Translations under genes and position numbers: made by a program
Notes under the pieces: generated by a model
What the model was told of the DNA's origin: nothing
The model's input: only the letters and a program-made list of their open reading frames with translations
Database searches by the model: none
Shown here: positions 1,625 through 15,142 of the stretch, one piece after another
How the letters are laid out: every line of letters starts with the position of its first letter
How positions within the stretch are numbered: the first letter of the stretch is position 1
Assembly: GCA_965231105.1 (NCBI GenBank)
Contig: OZ246417.1
Span: 229,013 to 293,012, forward strand
Length of the DNA stretch: 64,000 nucleotides
Direction: 5' to 3'
Source: an uncultured Candidatus Saccharibacteria bacterium
GTDB lineage: Bacteria > Patescibacteriota > Saccharimonadia > Saccharimonadales > JACDBH01

Positions 1625-3013
1625 TTAACTCTCGAACGGCTGGGTGTGTTTTTTGTCTATGCTATGAAAGCGCTGTTTTTCACGGTCGAAATACAAGTCC
1701 ACATCGTCGGTGGGACCATTACGATGCTTCTTAATAAGAATCTTCGCAATATTCTTATTCTCCGTTTCGGGATTATAGTAATCTTCACGGTAAATAAAGG
1801 CTACAACGTCGGCGTCCTGTTCGATAGAGCCAGATTCGCGAAGGTCGGCAAGCTGAGGAATTTGGGGGCTGCGACTTTCGACAGAGCGACTCAACTGACT
1901 CAGTGCAATCAATGGTACATTCAGTTCGCGGGCAATACCCTTAAGTCCACGAGAAATTTCAGAAATTTCCTGTACGCGGTTTGCATCACCGCCAAAGCGT
2001 GAGCCGCCGCTCATGAGCTGAAGGTAGTCCACAACAATAAGTCCTAGAGGTCGTTTATGAGCTTCCCGGCGAGCTTTGGTGCGCATATCGCTGACGGTAA
2101 TGCCTGGCGTATCATCAATAAAAATTTGTGCCTCGCTCAGTGTTCCCATTGCCTGACCGATCTTTTCAAAGTCGCTATCAGTAAGGTTGCCGGTTCGAAG
2201 GTTCCACGCGTTCACACTGGCTTCTGCGGCCAGCAAGCGATCAACGAGCTGTTCCTTACTCATTTCAAGGCTGAAGACGAGAACGGGCATAGCAGCTTTC
2301 ACGGCCACATTATGCGCAAGATTAAGGGCAAACGCAGTCTTACCCATCGAAGGTCGAGCGGCGAGAATTATAAGATCTGATGGCTGCAGGCCTGCCAAGA
2401 TGTTATCGAGATCACGATACCCTGTTGGCACACCTCTCAGTTTACCTTTATCTTTATGGAGTTCATCGAGACGATCAAAACTCGCGCTTAATATGTTCTC
2501 AATACTCTCGATATCTTGCTTTATGTGTTCCTGAGAAACTTCAAATAAACTGGTTTCAGCATTCTCAATAAGTTCTTGAAGACTCTGTGACTCATCAAAA
2601 CCTAGATTAGCGATGGACTGGCTTGCCTTAATAAGACGACGGCGCATCGCCTTTTGGGCAATAATATCTGCATAGCGATCAGCATGGGCAGCGGTTGGTA
2701 CGAAGTTTGTGAGTTCAGTGAGATACGAAGCGCCTCCCACAATATCAAGCATGCCAGTATTTTTTAGCTGATCCGATAAGGTCAAGACATCGATAGGACT
2801 ATGCTTTTCATAAAGCTGCAGCATGCCTTCGTAAATACGAGCATGTCTTTCATCATAAAAATCATTGGGCCGTACAAGATCTGCTACTTTTACCACTGCA
2901 TCGCTATCGATAAGCAATGCTCCTAATAGGCTGGCCTCTGCCTCGGTATTCTGAGGAGGAATGTGAGCGATTTTATCCGGTTCCATATTAGGACTCGAGT
3001 ACCTCTCCCCCAC
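1625..3013 (-). CDS. dnaB: Replicative DNA helicase DnaB
   Basis: The 462-aa product has the DnaB N-terminal domain and a RecA-like Walker A (ARPSMGKTAF), followed by the conserved DnaB C-terminal motifs. Confidence 0.9.
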   Translation of the reverse strand: MGERYSSPNMEPDKIAHIPPQNTEAEASLLGALLIDSDAVVKVADLVRPNDFYDERHARIYEGMLQLYEKHSPIDVLTLSDQLKNTGMLDIVGGASYLTELTNFVPTAAHADRYADIIAQKAMRRRLIKASQSIANLGFDESQSLQELIENAETSLFEVSQEHIKQDIESIENILSASFDRLDELHKDKGKLRGVPTGYRDLDNILAGLQPSDLIILAARPSMGKTAFALNLAHNVAVKAAMPVLVFSLEMSKEQLVDRLLAAEASVNAWNLRTGNLTDSDFEKIGQAMGTLSEAQIFIDDTPGITVSDMRTKARREAHKRPLGLIVVDYLQLMSGGSRFGGDANRVQEISEISRGLKGIARELNVPLIALSQLSRSVESRSPQIPQLADLRESGSIEQDADVVAFIYREDYYNPETENKNIAKILIKKHRNGPTDDVDLYFDREKQRFHSIDKKHTQPFES

Positions 3014-4514
3014 CGAATATTGACGTTATGGCCTGCAGTTCACTGCCACTTTCAGATACTATATCACTAGCCACGGGTTCAACGGGATCTGCTTGTTTTT
3101 CAGCAACCGGCTTACCCTTCGCCTTTTTATCGTGTAGAGCCTGAATCTGGTAGGTATTGCCTGTAAGTGCCTTAATAATACTCTGTAATTTTCCACTTGT
3201 TTGGGCGTCGGCAATCTTTTTGGCATGAAAGCCAAAAGAAAAACGCAACGTTAAAGTAGACTCGTTGCACTCCGGATGTGCCATACGAAGGACGCCATAC
3301 AGGGTGTTATTGTGCTTCTTTGTTTCCTGCAAAACATGAGGCCACCATTCTTCGAAGCCTGCATCTGAATGCGTAGGAGCGGTATTCTCTTCTGCTTTAG
3401 ACTCAGTTTCAGTAGGTTCCGCCTCTTCAACTTTCGCTTCAGCTGATTCTGACTTTTCTTTCTTTTCTATCTTGTTGGTGGGTTTTTCTGGTTTTGGCGT
3501 TGAGACAGGCGTGACGGGTGGTACGGAGGGTGCTGGCTGATGCGACGCAGAAGGTGTAGCAATGGCAGCGCCGAAGAGTGCAAGCTCTAGAGCTGCTAAG
3601 GGATTATGGGCGGCAGGGACAGAAAGGAGGTCGCTGAGGAGACTTTTAAGTAGCTCAGAGGACTGTTTATCTGTACTCGTAATGAATTGCTCGCGCACGA
3701 TCGCGCTTAGTTGTTTTGCAACCTGACTTGGAGTAATGCCCTGCTCTACGAGGCTGGCCAGGTTCTTTACTATTTCTGCAGGGACACCGGATAATGTGGC
3801 AGATAGAAGTCCTTCCAGGGCTTCATGAGGCGCAACGCCAATGAGGCGTTCCACGTCCTTGCGGGATACTGACTTCTTATGGTTGCCGACTTGGTCTAAT
3901 AAACTAATACTGTCTCTAAAACTTCCCGCACCATGCTCGGCCAATAGCTCGAGGGCATCATCGTCAATCTCTATGCCTTCCTTTTGCGCGATAGCACGAA
4001 GATGCTCAACCGCGCGTGGATTATCAATGGATTTAAAGGTAAAGCGCTGAGTTCTGCTGATAATAGTTTCAGGAAGTTTGTGTACCTCAGTGGTAGCTAG
4101 AATAAAGATGACGTGTGCTGGTGGTTCTTCGAGGGTTTTCAGAAGCGCATTAAATGCTTCTTTCGTGAGCATGTGCACTTCGTCGATAATATACACCTTG
4201 TACTTAGCTGAGGTAGGAGCAATGTGTACCTTGTCTCGAAGGTCTCTAATTTCATCAATACGTCGATTACTTGCGGCATCAATTTCAATAATATCGAGGT
4301 GCACCGATTCGTCGGTGTACGGAAGACTATTCACTTCATGCGCTAAGATACGAGCGATTGAAGTCTTACCCACTCCTCGAGGTCCAGTAAATAAATACGC
4401 ATGGCTAATCTTTCCAGACTTAATAGCGCGTTCAAGAGTTTTCGTGACATGCTCTTGCCCGACGATTTCCGATAACGATTTAGACCGATATTTTCGGTAT
4501 AATGCCTGACCCAA
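2988..4514 (-). CDS. dnaX: DNA polymerase III subunit gamma/tau
   Basis: It is 508 aa with an AAA+ Walker A (GPRGVGKTS) and the DnaX clamp-loader motifs. It starts at TTG with a GGAGG Shine-Dalgarno 7 nt upstream. Confidence 0.9.
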   Translation of the reverse strand: MGQALYRKYRSKSLSEIVGQEHVTKTLERAIKSGKISHAYLFTGPRGVGKTSIARILAHEVNSLPYTDESVHLDIIEIDAASNRRIDEIRDLRDKVHIAPTSAKYKVYIIDEVHMLTKEAFNALLKTLEEPPAHVIFILATTEVHKLPETIISRTQRFTFKSIDNPRAVEHLRAIAQKEGIEIDDDALELLAEHGAGSFRDSISLLDQVGNHKKSVSRKDVERLIGVAPHEALEGLLSATLSGVPAEIVKNLASLVEQGITPSQVAKQLSAIVREQFITSTDKQSSELLKSLLSDLLSVPAAHNPLAALELALFGAAIATPSASHQPAPSVPPVTPVSTPKPEKPTNKIEKKEKSESAEAKVEEAEPTETESKAEENTAPTHSDAGFEEWWPHVLQETKKHNNTLYGVLRMAHPECNESTLTLRFSFGFHAKKIADAQTSGKLQSIIKALTGNTYQIQALHDKKAKGKPVAEKQADPVEPVASDIVSESGSELQAITSIFGGGEVLES

Positions 4515-4606
4515 CTTTTGTACCCTCCAAAGGTTTATACATAGTATAAAACGTCAGCGGATGTATGCGCTACCCCTGTTGTGTATAAGACCTGGATAAT
4601 CTGTGT

Positions 4607-5113
4607 TTAAAGCGCCGCTTCTAAAGCAGCCCACTCGGCATTGCCATCTTCTGGCACATTGATACTCACTTGATCGCCTGGCTTTGCTTTAAAGTATGTA
4701 ACACTGGCAAGAAGTACACGGTACTCTTTGTCTCCAACTGTTACCACATAGTGACCTTCTTTTTGAGTAAGCACGCCAACAACTTGCTTACGAGGAATAG
4801 GACCGATCTGCTTGTATAAGAATGCACCGTCTTCAGCAATAGTGAGCTTTAAGATATCACCTTGTACGAGTTTAGACTTACTTGCATAGTTTGCAGGAAC
4901 AGGATAGGTTTTTGCATCTGAGCCGACCATATTCTGGCCATCAAAGACGCCTTCAATAACTTTGCCAATGTTCTCATCTTTGACACTAGCAGATACAACC
5001 GCGTCATCACCAACAAGGCTAATAAGCAGCTCTTTTGCGGCTGCTAAGTTTGTTTCTGCCTCTTGGATCAGCGCTCTCAATCGCTTTACCTGTTTTTCGG
5101 GGATATCCGCCAT
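4607..5113 (-). CDS. Hypothetical protein
   Basis: A clean 168-aa ORF with coding-like composition. I recognise no motif. Confidence 0.55.
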   Translation of the reverse strand: MADIPEKQVKRLRALIQEAETNLAAAKELLISLVGDDAVVSASVKDENIGKVIEGVFDGQNMVGSDAKTYPVPANYASKSKLVQGDILKLTIAEDGAFLYKQIGPIPRKQVVGVLTQKEGHYVVTVGDKEYRVLLASVTYFKAKPGDQVSINVPEDGNAEWAALEAAL

Positions 5114-5789: not shown

Positions 5790-6173
5790 TTAGGCAAGCT
5801 CGACAGTAGCGCCGGCTTCTTCCAAAGTCTTCTTAGCGTTTTCAGCGTCCTCTTTCTTAGCTTTTTCAAGCACAGTCTTTGGAGCGCCATCAACGATAGC
5901 CTTTGCTTCACCAAGGCCAAGACCAGTAAGGTCCTTAACAGCCTTAATAACAGCAACCTTCTGAGCACCAGCGTCCTTAAGAACAACATCGTACTCAGCC
6001 TTGGCTTCTTCAGCAGGAGCGGCGTCGCCACCTGCAGCAGCAGGGCCAGCAACAGCTACAGCGGCAGCTGCAGGCTCAATGCCGTATTCATCCTTAAGGA
6101 TGGTCTTAAGTTCGTTTACTTCAAGGACAGTAAGGCTGGTAAGCTCTTCTGCCAATTTCTTTAAATCTGCCAT
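5790..6173 (-). CDS. rplL: 50S ribosomal protein L7/L12
   Basis: The 127-aa product has the Ala/Glu-rich hinge and the conserved C-terminal domain (...[16 protein letters not shown]...). Confidence 0.95.
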
Positions 6174-6193: not shown

Positions 6194-6715
6194 TTAGGCT
6201 GCCTTAGCCTCAATGCCATCTAAAAGAGCGTGCAGGTTGCCTGAGAGGCCGCCCATGACGTCATTAAGTGGTGAGCTAAGTGTTGCCAATACTTCAGCGA
6301 TAAGTTGATTCTTGCTTGGGAGCGCTGCGAGTGCTTTAACTTCATCCGCACTAATGAATTTGCCGTCTGCTGTAATAGCACCGACAAACTGAATGCTCGG
6401 ATTAGTTTTTGCAAACGTAGCAAGGCTGCTCGCAGGAGCAACTTCGTCCGCTTCATTAAATGCATAAAGCAGCTGACCTTTTAGTGCGCTGGTATCAACA
6501 CCTTTAAGGCCTTCATTGCTCTCGAGAGCTTTGATGACCAGCCGGTTTTTTACCACACTTACTTTTGTGCCGCTTGCTTTTGCATCCTTACGTAAAGCTT
6601 GGATAGCTTTAACGGTTGTACCTTGGTACTGCGCAACTACTGTCAACTTAGAGTTAGCTAGTAGTTCGCTGAGTTCAGCTACAACTTCATTTTTCTTCTG
6701 TTTGGTTAGAGCCAT
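6194..6715 (-). CDS. rplJ: 50S ribosomal protein L10
   Basis: A 173-aa L10 family match, placed immediately upstream of rplL. Confidence 0.95.
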   Translation of the reverse strand: MALTKQKKNEVVAELSELLANSKLTVVAQYQGTTVKAIQALRKDAKASGTKVSVVKNRLVIKALESNEGLKGVDTSALKGQLLYAFNEADEVAPASSLATFAKTNPSIQFVGAITADGKFISADEVKALAALPSKNQLIAEVLATLSSPLNDVMGGLSGNLHALLDGIEAKAA

Positions 6716-6785
6716 GTCAGTGATTTCCTTTTCACTTCAATGTTTGTTGCTTATCCTATCGACCGTTGAATAAGCTGATTACGCT

Positions 6786-6821
6786 AAAACAAAAACGTCC
6801 TTGCGGATTAGGCAAAGACGT
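6786..6821 (-). terminator. Intrinsic terminator/attenuator in the rplJ leader, also 3' of the small-gene operon
   Basis: On the minus-strand RNA a 10-bp stem (ACGUCUUUGC / GCAAGGACGU, one G-U pair) with a 7-nt loop is followed by UUUUUGUUUU. A TATAAT -10 lies upstream at 6902..6907. Confidence 0.55.
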
Positions 6822-6901
6822 TAATAATGAACAAAAAGTATAAGATTGTTCACCTCGGTAGCATTCTTAAATCCTTTAGAGGGATCGCTACTGTCTTTGG
6901 T

Positions 6902-6907
6902 AATCAG
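6902..6907 (-). promoter_or_regulatory. Candidate -10 element (TATAAT) for the rplJL transcript
   Basis: A perfect TATAAT sits on the minus strand just after the stop of the upstream small gene. The -35 is weak. Confidence 0.25.
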
Positions 6908-6937
6908 AAAAATTATACGTTAACAGGGGTGCTTCTG

Positions 6938-7186
6938 TCAATCTCCAAATGGAATATCCTTAGGAAAATCTGGCCCACTTGAGAAATCATGCATATCGTT
7001 TAAAGGCGCAGTTTCGAACTCAGTGACCACATCATGTCGAACGGGTATGTATTGGGCAACAGAAGGTGGTACGGGAAAGCGTCTTCCCATCCGCTGAAGC
7101 TGTTCAAGTCGCTCAGAAGTGGTCTCAGGGCCAGTCCCAATATCTGTGGGTGCACTCCAGTATCTTTGAAAGTGAAATCCTTCCAT
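6938..7186 (-). CDS. Hypothetical small protein (82 aa), third gene of a tandem trio
   Basis: The ORF has an AAGGAG RBS 9 nt upstream of the ATG, lies 4 nt after the preceding gene and is followed by a terminator. Confidence 0.5.
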   Translation of the reverse strand: MEGFHFQRYWSAPTDIGTGPETTSERLEQLQRMGRRFPVPPSVAQYIPVRHDVVTEFETAPLNDMHDFSSGPDFPKDIPFGD

Positions 7187-7190
7187 GAGC

Positions 7191-7439
7191 TTACCATCTC
7201 CTTGTTAATTCATTTAGTACTACTGCAGGGTCAATCGCATGGCTCCGATGAACTGCGGCAAATTCTGTTGTAGATGCCACTGCGGTAGAAGCGACTACAT
7301 GAGTTACCTCTTCTACTCGTTGTGCTTCTACGGCTGGATGTAGTCTTCCGTCTCTAAGGTCCGATACGGGTCCACGGCCCTGTCTGTGGGCTTCGGCATT
7401 AACTTCTCCTGGTTGTAATGGTAGTTCGAAAGGGGTCAT
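7191..7439 (-). CDS. Hypothetical small protein (82 aa; trimmed from the 119-aa ORF-track call)
   Basis: An internal ATG at 7439 is preceded by AAGGAGA. The longer 7191..7550 version would overlap the upstream gene by 92 nt in another frame. Confidence 0.45.
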   Translation of the reverse strand: MTPFELPLQPGEVNAEAHRQGRGPVSDLRDGRLHPAVEAQRVEEVTHVVASTAVASTTEFAAVHRSHAIDPAVVLNELTRRW

Positions 7440-7458
7440 AACATTCTCCTTAAATCTT

Positions 7459-7707
7459 TTATACTGTCTCTCTGACTGACTGGATTTCGGTCTCAAAGTC
7501 GGCGCTCGAAAGTCCGCTTTGACTTGCTTCAGCTGCTTTTCGCCACTCATCGGTAAGGCCGTCGTATGCGGCCAATATCACAGCGGCAACCGCTACAGCT
7601 GTTTCGCTCATCGTTAACTTATTTTCGGGTCTCCAGTTTCGGTCTGCTTCTGGCATATGACCATGTGGCGTACTGACAGCTGGACAACCTTGGACCTCGC
7701 AACTCAT
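7459..7707 (-). CDS. Hypothetical small protein (82 aa), first gene of the trio
   Basis: An AAGGAA RBS sits 8-9 nt upstream of the ATG. The N-terminus reads CEVQGCPAVSTPHGH, with His/Cys that could bind metal. Confidence 0.5.
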   Translation of the reverse strand: MSCEVQGCPAVSTPHGHMPEADRNWRPENKLTMSETAVAVAAVILAAYDGLTDEWRKAAEASQSGLSSADFETEIQSVRETV

Positions 7708-7728
7708 ATCGTATTATTCCTTAAAATT

Positions 7729-7818
7729 AAAAAAACTTCACGAGTGGAGTGAAGCTTTCTTATGAGTGATTGGTTGTGCTGCGTCTTAGTTTGGCTTCAC
7801 TCCATAAGCAGCACAACC
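7729..7818 (-). promoter_or_regulatory. Structured 5' leader with an attenuator-like intrinsic terminator plus competing antiterminator/pseudoknot helices, upstream of the small-gene trio
   Basis: On the minus RNA, helix B' (7818-7808) pairs with B (7782-7772) over 11 bp. Helix A' (7803-7794) pairs with A (7755-7746) over 10 bp. A terminator hairpin CUUCAC-7nt-GUGAAG (7754-7736) with a U7 tract (7735-7729) shares its 5' arm with A. The RBS and ATG follow about 20 nt downstream. Confidence 0.45.
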
Positions 7819-7914
7819 TCCATTGAGAATAATGAGGTCGAGCAGGCTTAAAAGAGTATTTTTTGCCATAACAGTATCGATACTACGCTCGCTAAAAAAT
7901 ATGTCAAGTTATTG

Positions 7915-7943
7915 TTGACATTCTATTGACATAAGCGTACATT
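7915..7943 (+). promoter_or_regulatory. Candidate sigma70-type promoter (TTGACA, 17 nt, TACATT) for the 8115 gene
   Basis: A consensus -35 is followed by a 17-nt spacer and a 4/6 -10. Confidence 0.35.
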
Positions 7944-8061
7944 CTTTATTGGTATGAAAACCTTCCAACAATTTTACGCTCCAATTTGTGTAAAGCGCGA
8001 CATGCTTTGCTACATGAACGCGCGCTAAAACTGCTGGAATAACGACGAATTAAGAGAAAAA

Positions 8062-8101
8062 GTAAAAACCGGATTCCAGCAAAAGGGGGATCCGGTTTTT
8101 T
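8062..8101 (+). terminator. Hairpin plus T-tract 14 nt upstream of a start codon; leader attenuator or bidirectional terminator
   Basis: The stem CCGGAT / ATCCGG has a 15-nt loop and is followed by TTTTTT, with AAAAA on the 5' side. An upstream 8-nt segment GCTGGAAT (8024-8031) is complementary to ATTCCAGC, which overlaps the hairpin. Confidence 0.45.
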
Positions 8102-8114
8102 AGTAAGGGAAGAT

Positions 8115-8630
8115 GTGATGAGTAAGGGATTACAAGTTTTACTTGAACGTAAAATAGAAAATGAACGAGTGCAATTGCCTATAGGTAAGCAACGCGCTGA
8201 AGAGCTGGTTCATGAAATAAATACGGAAGGTCCGCATGCACTGAGAGGGTTTAATTTAGGCATTGCAGCTGCCCGCGTGGTAGCCGGTGCGGCAGACCCT
8301 TTACAGGATGAACGTGGTCGACATGTTCCATTTATCGTGAATGCGGCCCAGAATGACACAGGACGTTTTTGGTTTAATCGTGGTCTTTTTCTTCTCGCTC
8401 CCCCACTCGATATTCATGTAGACATTGATGCACTCCGCGACGTCAATGATATTGATACGCTTGTTGCCTACCATGAAGGTGCAGGCCTCGGCCTTACCGC
8501 CCAGCGACTCAAAAGAGGTCCTATGCACGATTATGAAGATTTACCTCCTGAAGCGCAGGAGGTACTGTCCTTTACCGTAGTGCCTGACTCGGAATTGGCA
8601 AAGAGATCTATTTTAGCTGTTCGAGCTTAA
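8115..8630 (+). CDS. Hypothetical protein
   Basis: A 171-aa ORF with a GTG/ATG start preceded by an AAGGGA RBS. It converges on and overlaps the tmk-thyX 3' end by 23 nt. Confidence 0.45.
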   Translation: MMSKGLQVLLERKIENERVQLPIGKQRAEELVHEINTEGPHALRGFNLGIAAARVVAGAADPLQDERGRHVPFIVNAAQNDTGRFWFNRGLFLLAPPLDIHVDIDALRDVNDIDTLVAYHEGAGLGLTAQRLKRGPMHDYEDLPPEAQEVLSFTVVPDSELAKRSILAVRA

Positions 8631-10926
8631 ACTGCGTATAGCGTTCTGCAGCAAGACGGGTCAGCTCAGGATCTTCCCCCTGGTTCACGAATTTCATGCT
8701 TTCGGCTAATACGGGATGTACTTCGGCTACTCTTTCATGCATTGCGCGTACGAGTTTACGGTAGCCTGGATGGCCTTGGGGACTGGTGCGAAGCTCATGA
8801 AGATGGAAAGCTTCTCGTGCATTGTAGGTGATCTTCCAGCGCATGCGGTGTCCGAGTAGTGTGGCGTACTGGGCCTCAAGTTCAAATCCGGCTTCCTGGA
8901 GTTCACTATAAAGTGCGGCGCTTAAATCAAAACACTTTTCAAAGGTATCGCTTAAGCCTGCTGCTTCAACGAGTTCAGACATATCAAAACCATAACGAGG
9001 CGTGAGCTGTTGCCAATCAAAGGCGTCCACCATGCGATGTCTCTGAAGATCACGGAATATACCGTAATCGCAGAGAATATCCCAGCTATAGTGAGCTACT
9101 TCTAATGCTCTGCCTGGTTTATGGCGGCGATTTAAGCGCTCGCCCATATAAATGCGGAAGGCTTCGAGCTTTTGCTCATATGGCCACTTGCGTACTGCTT
9201 TTTCTATATCCTTCAGGCTCATATTACTAAATTCGTAGAGCATGTGCGGAAGAAGGTCGAGCTCGTTGCGCGGCCAGTAGTCGACGAGCTGAATATCCTC
9301 GTCAAGAGAACCTTGATTTTGGGGGAGTAAGGTTTCAGCCACATACTTTACGGCCTTTCGAGTACTTGCTCGGTATGCGACCATTGCACCGCCACGATCT
9401 GGTTTATCTGCTCGTTCGAGAAAGGTAGGAACGATCTTGCGTGCTTCTTGTAAAATATGATCGCCGACTGTTCGTGCTTCCTGAAGCTCATCGCTCTGAA
9501 GGTGCATAATCAAACTTTCGAGCGCCTGACCCGAGGCATAAATACCGACAGTCGCCTTCGTTGCAACCGGCAATACAGCACGAACGGCATCACATGCCTG
9601 GGCACGGGTCGCTCCGTTAAATGCAATGTCTCGTTCGGCTTCAGGTACTGAAGAGTGTTCTCGAACATGATCGGTCAGTTTGTGAACCATATCTGAGTAC
9701 AGATCAAAAATCTGATCCATAACGCTTTCATAACGCTTCTTAAGCTTGGTCGGAAGCCCTGTTGGAGTAAAGTAACGGTATTTCCCGTTTGCATCTTTCT
9801 GATCGAAGTAGATATACCGGGTGGACTGTTCAAGATAGGCTGCTAATCGCCCCCACTCAAGCTTCTTGGTAAGTAGATTACTCGCATTTTCGACAACGAG
9901 ATGTAGCCCTACCAGTTGCTGAACGGAGTCGTCTCCATAAGCAGTAATAACGCGTTGTAATAGCTTCTCGTCTTTCCCTACGGCACCGGCAAACTCATCG
10001 AGAATGGTGACGCGCATGTCATCACCCCGGCGAGAAAGTCGTGCCATAGCGGCAGCTACGGTTGTTGGGCTTAATTTGTCGCTGAACGCGTACACATCTC
10101 CTTCGGTATCGGTAACGGCAGCTTCCAGGAAAGCCTTACCCTCCGCAGTTACTTCATAAGCACCGCTTGGAAGCTTTTTAACGAACTGAGCGTCTTTCCC
10201 ATCGTCGATCTGTTCCATCTTTGCTTCGAGGACTTCTTTAATGGGAGTAGCATCAGCATTTACACTTGCCTGCGAAGATTCAACAGGACGGGTCATGGGA
10301 CGCATAGGTCCGCTGATGGCCTGCCATATCGCTTCATGTACCTTTTCAGGCGGTGCGTCAGCAGTAATGACGGGAAGCTGACGCTGCTTTGCTTCCCATA
10401 AGTATCCGGCACGAACTCGTTCAAGGAATGCCAAATCTAAGTTATCAAAACGCTCACCTGCACCTCGGCCTTTGGCTCGTTCTTTTAAGACGGAGGCGGG
10501 CGCATCAAGAACAAGTGTCACATCTGGCTGCATGTCGCCTACTGCAAAACTGATAATTGAATTGATAGTGTTGTAGTCTGGCACATCCCCACGGCCGTAA
10601 TACTGGATAGCGAGCGTTGTTAGATAGTTACGATCACAAATACAAATTACGCCGCTATCACGCGCTCTCCGAATAACTTCAAGAGATTGACTGCGTGCCG
10701 CGTTATATAAGAGCACTTCTGTACGGGTATTCATGGGGTAGCGAGGATCCTGCGTAAGCATACGGATAGCTCGTGCCGTTAGGTCACTCTGCGAATCAGG
10801 TTCTCTGAAAAGGCGGACGGGGTAGCCGGCGGCTTCTAATTTATGGGCGAGCATTTCTATTTGTGTGGTCTTACCTACACCTTCAGGACCCTCAATAACA
10901 ATATAGCGCCCTTTTTGCTCATTCAT
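8608..10926 (-). CDS. tmk: Fusion protein: N-terminal thymidylate kinase (Tmk) with a C-terminal tandem ThyX-like (flavin-dependent thymidylate synthase) region
   Basis: Residues 1-210 show the Tmk P-loop IVIEGPEGVGKTTQ and the DRN/lid region. The C-terminal ~560 aa contains two ThyX-like halves: a degenerate first half (...EWGR...EQSTRY) and a second half with an RHR motif and the C-terminal NAREAFHLHELRT motif. Confidence 0.75.
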   Translation of the reverse strand: MNEQKGRYIVIEGPEGVGKTTQIEMLAHKLEAAGYPVRLFREPDSQSDLTARAIRMLTQDPRYPMNTRTEVLLYNAARSQSLEVIRRARDSGVICICDRNYLTTLAIQYYGRGDVPDYNTINSIISFAVGDMQPDVTLVLDAPASVLKERAKGRGAGERFDNLDLAFLERVRAGYLWEAKQRQLPVITADAPPEKVHEAIWQAISGPMRPMTRPVESSQASVNADATPIKEVLEAKMEQIDDGKDAQFVKKLPSGAYEVTAEGKAFLEAAVTDTEGDVYAFSDKLSPTTVAAAMARLSRRGDDMRVTILDEFAGAVGKDEKLLQRVITAYGDDSVQQLVGLHLVVENASNLLTKKLEWGRLAAYLEQSTRYIYFDQKDANGKYRYFTPTGLPTKLKKRYESVMDQIFDLYSDMVHKLTDHVREHSSVPEAERDIAFNGATRAQACDAVRAVLPVATKATVGIYASGQALESLIMHLQSDELQEARTVGDHILQEARKIVPTFLERADKPDRGGAMVAYRASTRKAVKYVAETLLPQNQGSLDEDIQLVDYWPRNELDLLPHMLYEFSNMSLKDIEKAVRKWPYEQKLEAFRIYMGERLNRRHKPGRALEVAHYSWDILCDYGIFRDLQRHRMVDAFDWQQLTPRYGFDMSELVEAAGLSDTFEKCFDLSAALYSELQEAGFELEAQYATLLGHRMRWKITYNAREAFHLHELRTSPQGHPGYRKLVRAMHERVAEVHPVLAESMKFVNQGEDPELTRLAAERYTQFKLEQLK

Positions 10927-11632
10927 AACTTAAACCCTCAATCTTAGTAGGTAGTTCACGTTTATCCTTCCAAGCCTTTGGAAGCATCTGACTTGGTGAC
11001 CATGTGGCAATAATGGTTTTAAGATCAGTACCGGCCTGGTATTTGCCACTAAAGCCTTGGTCGCGCCCCGTTCCATAGTTGCCTTCTACTTCCCCGGTTG
11101 TATGGAATACAGCTTGTGCAATACGTTCACCAACCGGTAGGAGCACGGTTTCACGCTCATTGAGGTTATAGATTTCAAGCGTGAGACGGTTGATGTAGCC
11201 AGGATCTACCCAGCCAGCATCAAAACAGACTGCAACGCCATTACGACCCCAGCTCGAACGACTTTTAAGCTCATACGCACCGGGCGGTTTAATGCCAAAA
11301 AATTCGTGCGTGTGAGCGAGAATGCGCTCACCTGGTTTAAGGGCGATGACCGGGTGATCATCAGGGATGTTCTTAAGAGGTTTAATACCATTGAGCTCAC
11401 ACCATGCCTTATGTGGCATAGCCTGGTAGGGACCGTCAAAATAGCGCTCAACATCCTCGCGTTCAAATGGATTATAAATATTTCGTTCGTTCGTCCGCTC
11501 TACTCTAAAAAAGTAATAACCGAGTGTGACATCAAGGCTTGCGTGTGAGACGTGTTTTGGCTGGAACGGCGTGCAGACAATGTGGCCATCATCAATAGCC
11601 TGGCGAATTTGGATGTTGCTGTAAACCCCCAT
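10919..11632 (-). CDS. dcd: dCTP deaminase (dUTPase-superfamily), possibly a bifunctional dCTP deaminase/dUTPase
   Basis: The 237 aa align with E. coli Dcd across the N-terminus and the ...GWVDPGYINRLTLEIYN...GERIAQAVF... region. There is an 8-nt overlap with tmk-thyX. Confidence 0.75.
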   Translation of the reverse strand: MGVYSNIQIRQAIDDGHIVCTPFQPKHVSHASLDVTLGYYFFRVERTNERNIYNPFEREDVERYFDGPYQAMPHKAWCELNGIKPLKNIPDDHPVIALKPGERILAHTHEFFGIKPPGAYELKSRSSWGRNGVAVCFDAGWVDPGYINRLTLEIYNLNERETVLLPVGERIAQAVFHTTGEVEGNYGTGRDQGFSGKYQAGTDLKTIIATWSPSQMLPKAWKDKRELPTKIEGLSYE

Positions 11633-11779
11633 GAATAACCCCTTTTAAGCTCTATATAGTGTACGATTTGTCAAATAGCTTTCGCAAGAAAACTGAGAAG
11701 TAGTTTTTACAGCACGTTTAGCCACTGTTATCAAAAAAGAGCCCCGTAGTGAGGCTCTTTTAAATTCGCTTGTTTTTAT

Positions 11780-12739
11780 TTAGAGTTCGCTGACCGCAAC
11801 TTTGATACCAGGTCCCATGGTAGTGGTAATGGTAATGCGCTTTACGTAAAGACCCTTCAAACTCGCGGGCTTATTTGCCTTAATCGAAGCGAAAATTGCT
11901 TGGACGTTTTGTAAAAGCTTATCCTCACCGAAAGAAACCTTACCGGCGCCTAAGTGGACAATCCCGGTACTATCGACACGATATTCAACACGGCCTGCTT
12001 TTGCTTGTGTTACGGCTTTCGCAACATCTGGTGTTACAGTACCGCTCTTTGGGTTTGGCATTAAGCCCTTTGGTCCGAGTACGCGAGCATACTTACCAAG
12101 TTTAGCCATCATGGCTGGAGTGGCAATCAACGTATCAAAGTTAATAACACCCTTTTCGATACTTTGAAGTAATTCGTCTGAACCTGCGATATCAGCACCA
12201 GCTTTCTTTGCGGCTGCTGCATCATCGGCCTCTGCTAAGACGGCAATACGTACTGTCTTACCAGTGCCTGCGGGCAATACTAATGTGTCGCGTACGTTCT
12301 GATCAGCCTGACGTGGATCAACACCTAGATTGATGTGAAGTTCAACAGTAGCATCAAATTTAACCGGACTTGTCTTAACGGCAAGTTCTAATGCTTCCTT
12401 AACGGTATATTCCTTATCTTTTTCAACAAGCTTTGCAACTTCGCGGAATTTCTTGCCGGCACGTTCAAGCTTAGTGCGGGCAGGTTTCTTGGCAGGCTTT
12501 TTAGGAGCTTCGGCATCTTCTTCTGTCTTTGCCGTTTTGCGTGCTTCTTTAGCTGCTTCGGCCTCTTTTTCGGCAACAGCTTTCGCACTCCGCTTACCGG
12601 CTTTTGCCACCGTAGCTTTCTTGGCTACTGCTTTTTCTTCAGTACTTGCTTGGTCCGTAGTCTGATCAACTTCCTGACTAGCCCCATCCTTAATGTCCTT
12701 TTCTGCTACTTTCTTGGTAGTTTTTTTGGCTTCTGCCAT
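11780..12739 (-). CDS. rplA: 50S ribosomal protein L1 with an N-terminal Lys/Ala/Glu-rich extension of about 90 aa
   Basis: The C-terminal 230 aa match the L1 family. The N-terminus is a low-complexity KAE-rich extension. Confidence 0.9.
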
Positions 12740-12797: not shown

Positions 12798-13250
12798 TTA
12801 TGCTTTATCAAAAGCGACTTTTTCTGTCTTCCGATCCATTGCTATTTTCTGCTGTGCTGGCTTCACTATATCGGTTTGAAAAACCTTATTTTCCGCCTCT
12901 AAGATCTCAATCTCAAAGTCCATAACAGTCTGCAAACGAGGTTTCTTAACCGGTGGAATAACCACAGGGTCAAGGTAGCCTGGTACGGCCTCAATTTGGC
13001 GGGCCGAGGCAATAACCTCATTCCGCGCCACAACTCCAAGCACAAACTGCGCATCTGCATCACCGGTATTTGCTGCTGTCCAAACAGCGTCTGTTACCTT
13101 GTCTCCGATAGGGAAAAACGGGCTAAGAGATGCGAATGCGTGCCTTTGTTGCTCAGGATAAAAATCCTCTAAGGCAACAGATTCAAGCTGTTTATAGTAA
13201 TCATTACGATCGTAATATGTCGAATGAAAACCTGCTTCAAACGAGCTCAT
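12798..13250 (-). CDS. Hypothetical protein inserted between rplK and rplA
   Basis: The ORF is trimmed to an internal ATG (MSSFEAGF...) that has a strong AAGGA RBS 7 nt upstream. About 151 aa. Confidence 0.5.
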   Translation of the reverse strand: MSSFEAGFHSTYYDRNDYYKQLESVALEDFYPEQQRHAFASLSPFFPIGDKVTDAVWTAANTGDADAQFVLGVVARNEVIASARQIEAVPGYLDPVVIPPVKKPRLQTVMDFEIEILEAENKVFQTDIVKPAQQKIAMDRKTEKVAFDKA

Positions 13251-13375
13251 GTATATCCTTTCGTGGTGCATACGGCCACATAGGCCTCCCACAAATTAGG
13301 TTTATATTAAAGAGTATTATAACAGCTAACAGAGGTGAAAGCAACGCTTCAATTAGAGCAAAGATAAGACGGCAA

Positions 13376-13588: not shown

Positions 13589-14023
13589 CTAGCCCTCGAC
13601 TTCAACACCCATAGAGCGGGCCGTACCTGCAACCATCTTTTTCACTGACTCAATATCATCAGCATTCATGTCAATCATCTTAGTTTCAGCAATTTCAGTG
13701 AGCTGAGCTTGAGAAAGTTTCTTTGAAACCTTTTCCTTATTAGGAACGCCAGAACCTTTTTCGATTTTAAGCGCTGCACGAATAAGGTCGTCAGTCGGTG
13801 TGCCAACTGCACGCCAGCTCATAGTGCGATCATCGTAGATAGTAATGTGAACGGTAAGGGTTTGACCCATTTTATCTTTAGTTGCTTCATTGAATGGATT
13901 GATGAAATCCATCATGTTAACACCGTACTGACCAAGGGTACTACCAACGGGTGGCGCTGCTGAGGCTTGGCCACCACGAATTTTCATCTTTAAATTAGCT
14001 TTCACTTGTTTGGCATCTGCCAT
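13589..14023 (-). CDS. rplK: 50S ribosomal protein L11
   Basis: A 144-aa L11 family match. Confidence 0.95.
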   Translation of the reverse strand: MADAKQVKANLKMKIRGGQASAAPPVGSTLGQYGVNMMDFINPFNEATKDKMGQTLTVHITIYDDRTMSWRAVGTPTDDLIRAALKIEKGSGVPNKEKVSKKLSQAQLTEIAETKMIDMNADDIESVKKMVAGTARSMGVEVEG

Positions 14024-14101: not shown

Positions 14102-14599
14102 TTACCCCTGTTGTCTATCCTGCCTAGGTATATAGCCTGGATTAATGATGTTTGAAGGATCTACATGGTTGATCCCGAGGATAACTCTACTTGACGTTCC
14201 GTCAGAATTTTGGATAACGGGACTAGTTAAAAGCACCTCATGATATCCCTGATGGCGAACGGCTTCCTCGGTAGCTTCGGCTTTCGGTATAAACAGAGTG
14301 TCCTGGAGTGCCTTACGAGCCATTACCGTATAACGAAGAGGCTGGTCGCACACAAATTCTGTGAAGCCGTTTTCACCCTTTTCTTCTATAAGATTTGCAT
14401 CAAAAGAGGCGAGGATTTCCGCTTCAGGATCATCAAATTGCTTCCACAACATATCAAGGGACCGCTGAATAGCAGCAAGACCTGCTATGACCGTGCCTGC
14501 TTCGGCGTTACGGCTAAATTTACCAAATTGCTCAATGCTCGTGATGATGCGGCCTTGTTCACGCATTCGTACGGTCGCAAAAGGATCTGTTTCGGCCAT
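14102..14599 (-). CDS. Hypothetical protein inserted between nusG and rplK
   Basis: A 165-aa ORF 4 nt downstream of the nusG stop, with a GAAGAAGG RBS. Confidence 0.55.
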   Translation of the reverse strand: MAETDPFATVRMREQGRIITSIEQFGKFSRNAEAGTVIAGLAAIQRSLDMLWKQFDDPEAEILASFDANLIEEKGENGFTEFVCDQPLRYTVMARKALQDTLFIPKAEATEEAVRHQGYHEVLLTSPVIQNSDGTSSRVILGINHVDPSNIINPGYIPRQDRQQG

Positions 14600-14602
14600 A
14601 GT

Positions 14603-15142
14603 CTAGGCCTTCTTCACTTGCAGCCCGTCCAACTCCACCGGCGTCTCACGGCCGAACATATTAACTAATACTTTAAGCTTGCCCTTAGCGGGATCGATTT
14701 CGTTGATAGCACCGTCAAAGCCTTTAAACGGACCATCCACGATGTTTACGACATCGCCAATCTTGTAATCCATCTTGTGCTTCGGTTCTTCACGACCCAT
14801 ACGCTTCATGATCTTTTCGATCTCTTCAGTTTCAACAGGGGTTGGCTCGGTTCCGGTACCAACAAATCCAGTAACAGATGGAGTGTTCCGAACAATGTAC
14901 CAGGCATCTTCAGACAGTTTCATCTGTACAAGAACATAACCTTGGAAAATGCGCTTCTCAACAACTTTGCGCTTGCCGTTCTTAATCTCGATCATCTTTT
15001 CTTTGGGAACTAAGACCTGATAGATCTTATCTTTCATGTCTAAAGAATCAGCGCGCTGGCGGATGCTTTCTGCTACCTTTTCTTCATATCCACTATAGGT
15101 ATGGATGGCGTACCACTGTTTGGTTGTATCGTATCTCTTCAT
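14603..15142 (-). CDS. nusG: Transcription termination/antitermination factor NusG
   Basis: The 179 aa contain an NGN domain (WYAIHTYSGYEEKV) and a KOW domain (GDVVNIVDGPFKGF). Confidence 0.9.
   Translation of the reverse strand: MKRYDTTKQWYAIHTYSGYEEKVAESIRQRADSLDMKDKIYQVLVPKEKMIEIKNGKRKVVEKRIFQGYVLVQMKLSEDAWYIVRNTPSVTGFVGTGTEPTPVETEEIEKIMKRMGREEPKHKMDYKIGDVVNIVDGPFKGFDGAINEIDPAKGKLKVLVNMFGRETPVELDGLQVKKA

Follow-up and report, generated by a model that had tools for sequence, protein, structure and literature searches.

A 64,000-nucleotide stretch of DNA from an uncultured Candidatus Saccharibacteria (TM7) bacterium (contig OZ246417.1, positions 229,013 to 293,012; the whole stretch is called the window below) carries two adjoining genes, dcd and tmk::thyX2, that probably form a thymidylate operon. 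Together their products would cover three consecutive steps in the synthesis of thymidine triphosphate (dTTP), and the second product contains a flavin-dependent thymidylate synthase (ThyX) that appears to be split into two halves sharing two active sites per dimer. In the proposed pathway, Dcd, a homotrimer-type bifunctional enzyme of the dUTPase superfamily, would deaminate deoxycytidine triphosphate (dCTP) and remove pyrophosphate to yield deoxyuridine monophosphate (dUMP). The C-terminal 520 residues of Tmk::ThyX2, a duplicated flavin-dependent thymidylate synthase, would then methylate dUMP to thymidine monophosphate (dTMP), and the N-terminal thymidylate kinase (Tmk), held on a flexible linker of ~50 residues, would convert dTMP to the diphosphate (dTDP) beside the site of its synthesis. 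The initial annotation of this DNA had proposed the same order, from dCTP to dU(M/T)P, dTMP and dTDP; the steps stand, and the residues of Dcd favour dUMP over deoxyuridine triphosphate (dUTP) as the first product. Our view of the dimeric two-site assembly, of catalysis and of any substrate channelling derives from sequence.

The two genes share 8 nt, the overlap by which the kinase/ThyX gene had been joined to the deaminase gene in the initial annotation. At the junction, GGTTTAAGTTATGAATGAGC, the letters ATGAATGA are common to the TGA stop of dcd and the ATG start of tmk, an arrangement consistent with translational coupling. A scan of one genome per species gave at least 600 matching stretches, and 80 loci were kept among the matches listed (L numbers below); in sister loci of this set, such as L003, L005, L010, L011 and L013, the Dcd and Tmk matches likewise abut or overlap. 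No second Tmk, ThyX or Dcd was found within the 64-kb window, and we infer that the module is the cell's only ThyX, Tmk and dUMP source.

The product of the upstream gene is, as had been proposed, a dCTP deaminase of the dUTPase superfamily, with a match to Pfam DCD (PF22769) at 6.2e-33 (114.5 bits, cut-off 27). In monofunctional dCTP deaminases the Arg at E. coli position 126 sits in the hydrolytic-water site and is salt-bridged to Asp128, bifunctional dUMP-forming enzymes have Phe or Trp at this position, and dUTP hydrolysis requires Ser102, Asp119 and Gln148 in M. tuberculosis numbering (PMC3360063). Ungapped alignment to 2qxx and 1xs1 places W141 of Dcd at the E. coli Arg126 position and shows that S126, D143 and Q173 are also present. 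The deamination residues S126, R130 and E153 align to both structures too (we take their E. coli counterparts to be S111, R115 and E138). Across 32 Saccharibacteria orthologues, S126, R130, E153 and Q173 are kept in every sequence and D143 in 31, and position 141 is Trp in 31 and Phe in one. With this signature of W141 together with S126, D143 and Q173, the first step most likely leads from dCTP directly to dUMP, and Dcd is most likely a bifunctional dCTP deaminase:dUTPase. The bifunctional enzymes Rv0321 of M. tuberculosis (2QXX/2QLP) and of M. jannaschii (1OGH) have the same deamination Ser, Arg and Glu as Dcd and likewise combine an aromatic residue in place of the blocking Arg with the hydrolysis Ser, Asp and Gln. 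Unlike them, Dcd is 237 aa long, has an extra segment in its N-terminal half and a C-terminal extension, and is apparently coupled in translation to downstream thymidylate enzymes.

It is unlikely that Dcd is instead monofunctional and releases dUTP, leaving a separate dUTPase elsewhere in the genome to supply dUMP. The NCBIfam model that fits it best, TIGR02274 (dCTP_deam), is named plain "dCTP deaminase", and the score of 92.4 bits lies 0.4 below the cut-off of 92.8, a sign of divergence from characterized enzymes that counts against our assignment; the protein also has segments that characterized enzymes lack (237 aa against ~180–200). Yet Dcd has a Trp, itself conserved, in place of the hydrolysis-blocking Arg of monofunctional enzymes (E. 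coli R126), it possesses the full set of Ser, Asp and Gln that dUTP hydrolysis needs, and among solved structures it is nearest to 4xjc and to the bifunctional enzyme of M. tuberculosis (2qxx/2qlp). As to its size, solved relatives of Dcd have ~150–205 aa, and aa 92–199 alone align well; the additional parts are a segment at ~aa 40–90 and a C-terminal extension of ~35 aa.

Two ThyX-like domains had been predicted behind the kinase, and three kinds of evidence now support them. First, a domain scan of the 772-aa protein finds Thymidylate_kin and, in two stretches, Thy1 (PF02511; 4.3e-35, 121.7 bits), and each half, scanned alone, exceeds the Thy1 gathering score of 24.8. Second, when 47 diverse tandem proteins are combined into a profile, half 1 aligns to residues 47–228 of M. 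tuberculosis ThyX (3e-14) and half 2 to its T. maritima counterpart (5e-6). Third, an AlphaFold2 model of aa 243–772, built on a more diverse alignment, reached a predicted local distance difference test score (pLDDT) of 88.6 and a predicted template modelling score (pTM) of 0.88, and its top Foldseek matches were all ThyX chains (target-normalized TM-score (TMt) 0.64–0.75, probability 1.00, ~223 aligned columns); against the TM0449 chains, TMt was ~0.73 and the query-normalized score (TMq) ~0.32. The full-length model, made from a shallow alignment (68–82% identity), had a pLDDT of 69.5 with the active-site segments of half 2 below 50, and Foldseek matched it to Tmk only. Since Foldseek matches only single-domain ThyX, each half of the C-terminal 520 aa has, in the model, the ThyX fold, and the searched copy of the PDB contains no tandem ThyX. 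By its sequence the protein is filed under the Thy1 superfamily and the tandem-ThyX subfamily. It lacks the single-domain motif and scores below the cut-off for TIGR02170, for which reasons it is not placed among canonical ThyX equivalogs.

Each active site of the ThyX homotetramer is built by three subunits (PMC6514825, section 3.1). In M. tuberculosis numbering, the RHR motif of subunit A, together with Ser71 and Arg190 of subunit B, holds the flavin adenine dinucleotide (FAD) of A; dUMP is bound through Arg95 and Arg199 from A plus Ser105 and Arg107 from subunit C, whose Tyr108 forms the lid over it (PMC6514825). The T. maritima equivalents are R78, H79, R80 and R174 in role A, R165 in role B and S88, R90 and Y91 in role C (PMC6514825), and the S88-G-R90-Y91 stretch is the dUMP/carbinolamine loop, in which S88, R90 and Y91 each have roles (PMC11940539, PMC6514825). 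In the canonical enzyme, A gives RHR and R174 to FAD and dUMP, B gives R165, and C gives the S88-R90-Y91 loop.

Mapped onto these residues (Table 1), the ThyX motif of Tmk::ThyX2 is complete only across both halves together. Half 1 is degenerate at RHR, as the initial annotation had it, with W358-G359-R360 inside the EWGR of aa 357–360. Half 2 has the RHR, and the C-terminal motif NAREAFHLHELRT at aa 702–714, that it had been credited with, but is degenerate as well: the S88-G89 loop is deleted in family-profile alignments, and the counterparts of R90 and R147 are lost. We take R147 to belong to the dUMP-side subunit.

Table 1. Counterparts of T. maritima (Tm) ThyX active-site residues in the two halves of Tmk::ThyX2
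Tm residue	Half 1	Half 2
R78	W358	R629
H79	G359	H630
R80	R360	R631
E86	E366	loop deleted
S88	S368	loop deleted
R90	R370	Q639
Y91	Y371	variable
R147	R449	Q686
R165	Q467	R704
R174	H475	R713

The division is conserved far beyond the window. Residues were counted over three alignments, comprising 76 kinase fusions (A1), 47 diverse tandem ThyX proteins (A3) and 80 mostly Acidimicrobiia-type tandem ThyX proteins (A4). In half 1, R360, E366, S368, R370 and R449 are invariant in all three, and Y371 is present in 100% of A1 and A4 and as Tyr in 45 of the 47 sequences of A3. Half 2 has R629, R631, R704, R713 and H719 invariant throughout and H630 invariant in A1 and A4 (His in 45/47 of A3); it also retains R625. 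The positions lost in either half are variable or fixed to non-basic residues, and LEWGR, the degenerate motif of half 1, is invariant in A1 and A4. The residues of the tandem-ThyX signature that are invariant or nearly so in A3 and A4 are all found in the window protein; half 1 of this signature has R-x5-E-x-S-x-R (Y following in nearly all) plus R-x2-LP, and half 2 has RD-x2-RHR, NAR and LR-x5-H.

By this complementary pattern half 2, which retains A and B residues only, can play only roles A and B, and half 1, with C residues only, can play only role C. Combined with 222 symmetry, the split of roles leads us to predict a pseudo-tetramer of two polypeptides, having two active sites in place of four. 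The half-2 domains would pair across the dimer, each binding one FAD, and each half-1 domain would close one site over dUMP, leaving two sites complete and two vestigial. The pseudo-dimer with a single site per polypeptide suggested in the initial annotation agrees with the sequence, with the amendment that a complete site should also need the second polypeptide.

Several observations weigh against this reading. The thyX equivalog model TIGR02170 gives 58.5 bits against a cut-off of 87.9, so the protein is divergent from characterized enzymes, and direct comparison of half 1 with half 2 by hhalign is weak (probability 22%), with the register as expected. The motif RHRx7-8S is not found within one domain: half 1 has WGRx7S, with RH lost and S kept, and half 2 has RHR without the Ser/Arg loop. 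The packing of the halves and the composition of the sites are predicted from sequence alone. Further, a purely vestigial reciprocal site would not explain why R360 is invariant in half 1, or why half 1 keeps a Ser equivalent to M. tuberculosis S71 (S334, in an invariant GDDS); an invariant Arg of half 2, R606, stands at the S71-equivalent position and does not fit neatly either. K354, at the position of T. maritima R74, was dropped as evidence, since M. tuberculosis R87 and T. maritima R74 lie at different alignment positions.

An alternative is that the tandem ThyX is not a thymidylate synthase; it might be a ThyX-like flavin methylase of another nucleotide or a catalytically dead scaffold, with dTMP salvaged from the host bacterium. 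Saccharibacteria are epibionts with reduced metabolism, which counts for salvage. So do the TIGR02170 score, far under its cut-off, the lack of a complete ThyX motif in either half, and a phmmer search of the ThyX part against PDB sequences, which retrieved no ThyX at E<10 and only chance matches to epoxide hydrolases at E ~0.05. Moreover, a 2009 paper remarked that the ThyX of Chloroflexi carries a duplicated domain and was as yet uncharacterized (Valas and Bourne 2009, PMC3224940). We consider this alternative distinctly improbable on two grounds. The two halves jointly keep every listed FAD- and dUMP-binding residue, invariant or nearly so across distant phyla, which argues for purifying selection on a working dUMP/FAD site. 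And fusion to a dTMP kinase, with coupling to a dUMP-forming deaminase, makes sense only with dTMP as the product.

The proposed split thymidylate synthase differs in defined ways from known systems. Canonical ThyX, also called FDTS (T. maritima TM0449, 1O26; M. tuberculosis Rv2754c, 2AF6), has the Thy1 fold predicted for both halves, and its FAD- and dUMP-contacting residues are all present here when the two halves are combined; the window protein instead has two linked, non-identical domains, neither with the full RHRx7S, and an attached N-terminal kinase. Canonical ThyX is a tetramer with four sites, whereas the assembly predicted here is a dimer with two. Tandem-only ThyX proteins (~520–550 aa; 31–55% identity to the module) have the same LEWGR...STRY half 1 and RHR...NAR...LR half 2 and, unlike the window protein, no kinase domain. 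The ThyX of Chlamydia (~529 aa) may be a tandem form as well. In the bifunctional DHFR-TS of protozoa and plants, too, a single dimerizing polypeptide combines two enzymes that follow one another in the thymidylate cycle. Its proteins (ThyA, DHFR) are unrelated to Tmk::ThyX2, and DHFR recycles folate whereas Tmk phosphorylates the product; ThyX has no need of DHFR. An analogy for the assembly is the archaeal tRNA-splicing endonuclease alpha'2, a tandem-repeat homodimer derived from an alpha4 homotetramer. It took the same route from a homotetramer to a dimer of duplicated subunits, the repeats dividing catalytic and structural roles, but its fold and chemistry are unrelated to those of ThyX, and we offer it as an analogy of assembly only. 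PMC3239211 mentions this endonuclease family.

The third enzyme, predicted in the initial annotation to be a canonical thymidylate kinase at the N-terminus, is well supported. Pfam Thymidylate_kin (PF02223) covers aa 11–200 of the 772-aa protein (1.2e-29), and the equivalog model TIGR00041 is passed with 111.8 bits against a cut-off of 83.25. Solved Tmk structures match the domain, the best being P. aeruginosa Tmk (4e5u, 3.8e-29), and Foldseek gives TMt 0.81–0.85 to solved Tmk structures. The Tmk motifs are a P-loop, GPEGVGKT (13–20), REP (41–43), YNAARSQ (74–80), CDRNY (97–101) and an Arg-rich LID (150–161); the P-loop, REP, DR and LID (RAKGRGAGERF) motifs align to P. aeruginosa Tmk, and the motif residues are invariant among the 76 fusions. 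In the linker that follows, pLDDT falls below 50 at aa 208–233 and 236–242 of the full-length model, and the consensus of the 76 fusions is mostly unconserved (x), with a partly conserved helix. Because all the Tmk motifs are canonical and invariant in close relatives, we regard the domain as a functional, flexibly tethered dTMP kinase.

Sister lineages complicate this assignment. Many Saccharibacteria carry, fused to ThyX2, a second Tmk-like class with GTDGSGKGT in the P-loop, FDFPQYD for REP and ANRFT for DRNY. The form with Gly after the P-loop Lys (GTDGSGKGT) is found in L004, L008, L012, L014–L017, L020, L024, L028, L031 and L037, and the same class with GK[ST] in L006, L022, L023, L025, L029 and L033; the domain occupies the N-terminal ~250 aa of the fused open reading frame (ORF), at ~7200–8000 in each locus. 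By its sequence it may be an inactive or re-purposed kinase. Ten Saccharibacteria species also have an extra stand-alone Tmk-like gene downstream of rplA and upstream of dcd (Table 2), which in L017 and L031 lies a few hundred to ~1,200 bases from rplA. Six of these genomes have the variant fused domain and four the intact one. The window has no stand-alone Tmk gene near rplA.

The variant N-terminal domains and separate tmk genes of sister genomes count against our reading to this extent, that the kinase role of the fused domain is not universal. They would also fit a fused Tmk that is a pseudo-kinase, regulating ThyX as a nucleotide-sensing or structural part, as sister domains have Gly after the P-loop Lys (GTDGSGKGT) and Asn for the Asp of the DR motif (NRFT), and a separate tmk near rplA accompanies both variant and intact domains. 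For the window protein itself this seems quite improbable, given canonical Tmk motifs that are invariant in its 76 closest relatives, a TIGR00041 score above the equivalog cut-off, and no second Tmk found in the 64-kb window.

Taking the split ThyX and a working kinase together, one may go further, in a speculation that we regard as rather unlikely, and picture a thymidylate factory: an obligate asymmetric dimer with two composite sites, in which the vestigial sites, with their invariant residues (GDDS, R360, R606), may serve as regulatory nucleotide pockets and the tethered kinases capture dTMP on its way out. If so, with a coupled Dcd:dut, dCTP would pass to dTDP with little release of dUMP or dTMP, and regulation or assembly would be what has preserved the variant kinases of sister lineages (GTDGSGKGT, NRFT) as pseudo-kinases.

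The position of the module, between rplA and rplJ as stated in the initial annotation, is confirmed for rplA by Pfam and for rplJ by a phmmer self-match and synteny. The annotation had further described the locus as interrupting rplKAJL; the position holds, and the notion of a local insertion does not. When the window proteins were searched against the ORFs of the 80 fetched loci, ~30 Saccharibacteria species had L11 first, then L1, in some cases a stand-alone Tmk, then Dcd, Tmk::ThyX2, a spacer of varying length, L10 and finally L7/L12. Given this shared gene order, the placement between rplA and rplJ is an old Saccharibacteria trait, and both it and the Tmk fusion are ancestral in Saccharimonadia. 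None of the ~40 non-Saccharibacteria loci has a fused kinase, a detectable Dcd within 8 kb or ribosomal-protein genes nearby. In L035 (7199–9623) and L036 (6157–9602), a separate Tmk-like ORF and a thyX2 with 53–54% identity lie away from ribosomal genes, which looks like a pre-fusion state. The gap between L11 and L1 ranges from ~350 to 1,250 bp across sister genomes. L027 (5876–9548) has a separate Tmk and, on its ThyX2, a 257-aa N-terminal domain without detectable similarity to Tmk. The arrangement L11-L1-...-Tmk::ThyX2-L10 also occurs, at 54–68% identity, in L023 (labelled Candidatus Limnocylindria) and L033 (Candidatus Parcubacteria), which could reflect mis-binning, mislabelling or a wider distribution of the fusion in the Candidate Phyla Radiation.

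A recent mobile or horizontally acquired insertion splitting rplKA from rplJL in this genome would account for an rplA–rplJ interval of 5 kb with four small ORFs lacking a family match, for the differing length of that interval between genomes, and for nearest non-Saccharibacteria ThyX2 relatives in Actinomycetota. It is nonetheless very improbable and was rejected on conserved synteny and even composition: L11-L1-Dcd-Tmk::ThyX2-L10-L7/L12 is common to ~30 species whose ThyX2 proteins are only 54–73% identical, the GC content is even over the region (0.47–0.52 in the module, close to its flanks), and no flanking repeats or mobile-element genes were found.

The reality of the fusion, for which an assembly error or frameshift was the obvious concern, is supported by its recurrence. 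The identical 772-aa protein occurs on two more independent Logan contigs, and its architecture recurs at full length in >120 protein clusters from independent assemblies (NCBI, JGI, ENA and Logan; 68–100% identity, 765–788 aa). In ~30 Saccharibacteria species genomes among the 80 loci, a single stop-free frame encodes Tmk and ThyX2, with Dcd immediately upstream. An artefact that joined separate tmk and thyX genes can practically be dismissed on these grounds and on the partly conserved helix of the linker, even though the two genes are adjacent but separate in the more distant Saccharibacteria L035 and L036.

Searched against 1.84 billion representative proteins, the ThyX part matched 3,493 clusters at E <=1e-3 and 708 at <=1e-30. 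Among the best 150 clusters, kinase-fused proteins (720–800 aa) are mixed with tandem-only ones (~520–560 aa). The tandem-only proteins, annotated as FAD-dependent thymidylate synthase, come from Acidimicrobiia, Microthrixaceae, Methylomirabilota, Binatia, Woesebacteria and one DPANN archaeon. As for the 80 loci, ~40 are from genomes of Saccharibacteria type, a few of which bear other or generic bin labels; Acidimicrobiia and other Actinomycetota make up most of the remainder, which also includes one Vicinamibacterales genome. Thus the tandem ThyX, which had been called unusual, belongs to a large and widespread family, and the fusion to Tmk, called unusual too, is the rule across Saccharimonadia and absent from the non-Saccharibacteria loci of the 80.

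In their source records the fused clusters go under the names "dTMP kinase" or "putative thymidylate synthase", with Candidatus Saccharibacteria or Saccharimonadales as the organism, and JGI annotates some as "thymidylate kinase/thymidylate synthase ThyX". A literature search retrieved no paper describing a Tmk-ThyX fusion or a complementary division of the ThyX active site, and none naming thyX together with Saccharibacteria. The components are known enzymes (Tmk, ThyX and Dcd:dut), and the tandem ThyX is a large annotated family that is apparently uncharacterized. The Tmk fusion is an architecture characteristic of Saccharimonadia, recognized in some automatic annotation, and its function is an ordinary one, de novo thymidylate synthesis.

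To our knowledge, humans lack ThyX, the enzyme is a target for antibacterials, and mechanistic and structural work on it has so far all been done on the single-domain homotetramer; we found no solved structure of a duplicated ThyX. Duplicated ThyX occurs very frequently among environmental bacteria and archaea and amounts to a natural experiment in which flavin-side and dUMP-side residues have been parted between halves. It could resolve the working of an active site built from three subunits and show if the enzyme can do without half of its sites. Saccharibacteria are epibionts whose genomes are minimal, and a conserved dCTP-to-dTDP module beside ribosomal and replication genes suggests that these cells make their own thymidylate from a cytosine nucleotide and do not depend on salvage only, and the plain label "dTMP kinase" at NCBI conceals the cell's thymidylate synthase.

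Table 2. Features of the module and its surroundings (window positions, except where a locus is named)
Feature	Position	Strand	Basis or remark
dcd ORF	10919..11632	minus	ATG start, 237 aa (ORF list)
tmk::thyX2 ORF	8608..10926	minus	ATG start, 772 aa (ORF list)
dcd/tmk::thyX2 overlap	10919..10926	minus	8 nt, ATGAATGA, read from sequence
Thymidylate kinase domain, aa 1–205	10312..10926	minus	PF02223, TIGR00041, 4e5u match, Foldseek
Linker, aa 206–254	10165..10311	minus	poorly conserved, predicted disordered save one short helix
ThyX half 1, aa 255–535	9322..10164	minus	Thy1 66.9 bits; putative dUMP-side half
ThyX half 2, aa 536–772	8611..9321	minus	Thy1 60.8 bits; putative FAD-side half
EWGR, aa 357–360, degenerate RHR counterpart	9847..9858	minus	half 1
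S368-T-R370-Y371, counterpart of Tm S88-G-R90-Y91	9814..9825	minus	aligned to M. tuberculosis S105/R107/Y108
RHR, aa 629–631, FAD-binding ThyX motif	9034..9042	minus	half 2 only; role from PMC6514825
N702-A-R704...L712-R713, counterpart of Tm N163-A-R165/L173-R174	8788..8823	minus	alignment
rplA	11780..12739	minus	Pfam Ribosomal_L1, 1.5e-60
rplK	13589..14023		phmmer self-match and synteny
rplJ	6194..6715		phmmer self-match and synteny
rplL	5790..6173		phmmer self-match and synteny
Terminator-like hairpin	11733..11758	minus	AGAGCC-loop-GGCTCT, then T-run; own reading of the sequence, not listed by the consensus scanner
Shine-Dalgarno-like stretch, AAAAGGGG	11638-11645		before dcd; read from sequence
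Ribosomal protein L10 leader	6780..6918	minus	Rfam RF00557, 67.6 bits (gathering 44), E 2.1e-09
Sigma-70 consensus match	6912-6941	minus	12/12: TTGACA, 18 nt, TATAAT; directly upstream of L10 leader
Three consecutive 82-codon ORFs	6938-7186, 7191-7439, 7459-7707	minus	between module and L10 leader
171-aa ORF	8115-8630	plus	family unknown; convergent, 23-nt overlap with 3' end of tmk::thyX2
14-bp inverted repeat with flanking A/T runs, AAAAACCGGATTCC...GGGATCCGGTTTTT	8064-8100		just upstream of 171-aa ORF
164-aa ORF	12798-13292	minus	between rplK and rplA; no family match
165-aa ORF	14102-14599	minus	between nusG and rplK; no family match
nusG	14603-15142		
168-aa ORF	4607-5113	minus	downstream of rplL; of unknown kind
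dnaX	2988-4514	minus	clamp-loader tau/gamma
dnaB	1625-3013	minus	helicase
Stand-alone Tmk-like genes of sister loci	L004 5747-6241; L009 5941-6534; L011 3129-3689; L016 5783-6424; L017 4087-4671; L018 3154-3741; L019 4075-4656; L020 5788-6399; L031 5880-6440; L037 3747-4307		

The elements around the module (Table 2) suggest how it may be expressed. The terminator-like hairpin lies directly 3' of the rplA stop and divides the rplKA unit from the dcd unit. With this hairpin after rplA and a Shine-Dalgarno-like stretch before dcd, the dcd and tmk::thyX2 pair probably forms its own transcription unit. On the other side of the module, the L10 leader upstream of rplJ shows that rplJL has retained a regulatory leader of its own; the sigma-70 consensus just upstream of this leader overlaps the last codons of the third 82-aa ORF. 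Gene callers also predict the three 82-codon ORFs on an independent contig (L001). They have no detectable mutual similarity, no DNA repeat and no Pfam or PHROG match, and we rejected the idea that they are paralogues for want of that similarity. The convergent 171-aa ORF is matched in near-identical contigs only; if it is not real, the inverted repeat beside it could be a bidirectional terminator for the minus-strand operon.

Unmatched ORFs are found at the rplK/rplA and nusG/rplK junctions too, so the whole nusG-rplKAJL cluster is interspersed with unknown genes, beyond the junction of rplA and rplJ. The rplA product has 319 aa, and its Ribosomal_L1 domain begins at residue 122, behind an N-terminal extension of ~120 aa rich in Lys, Ala and Glu. 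Downstream of rplL, the minus strand carries the 168-aa ORF, dnaX and dnaB (1625–5113) instead of rpoB/rpoC, which places the thymidylate module ~4 kb from core replication genes.

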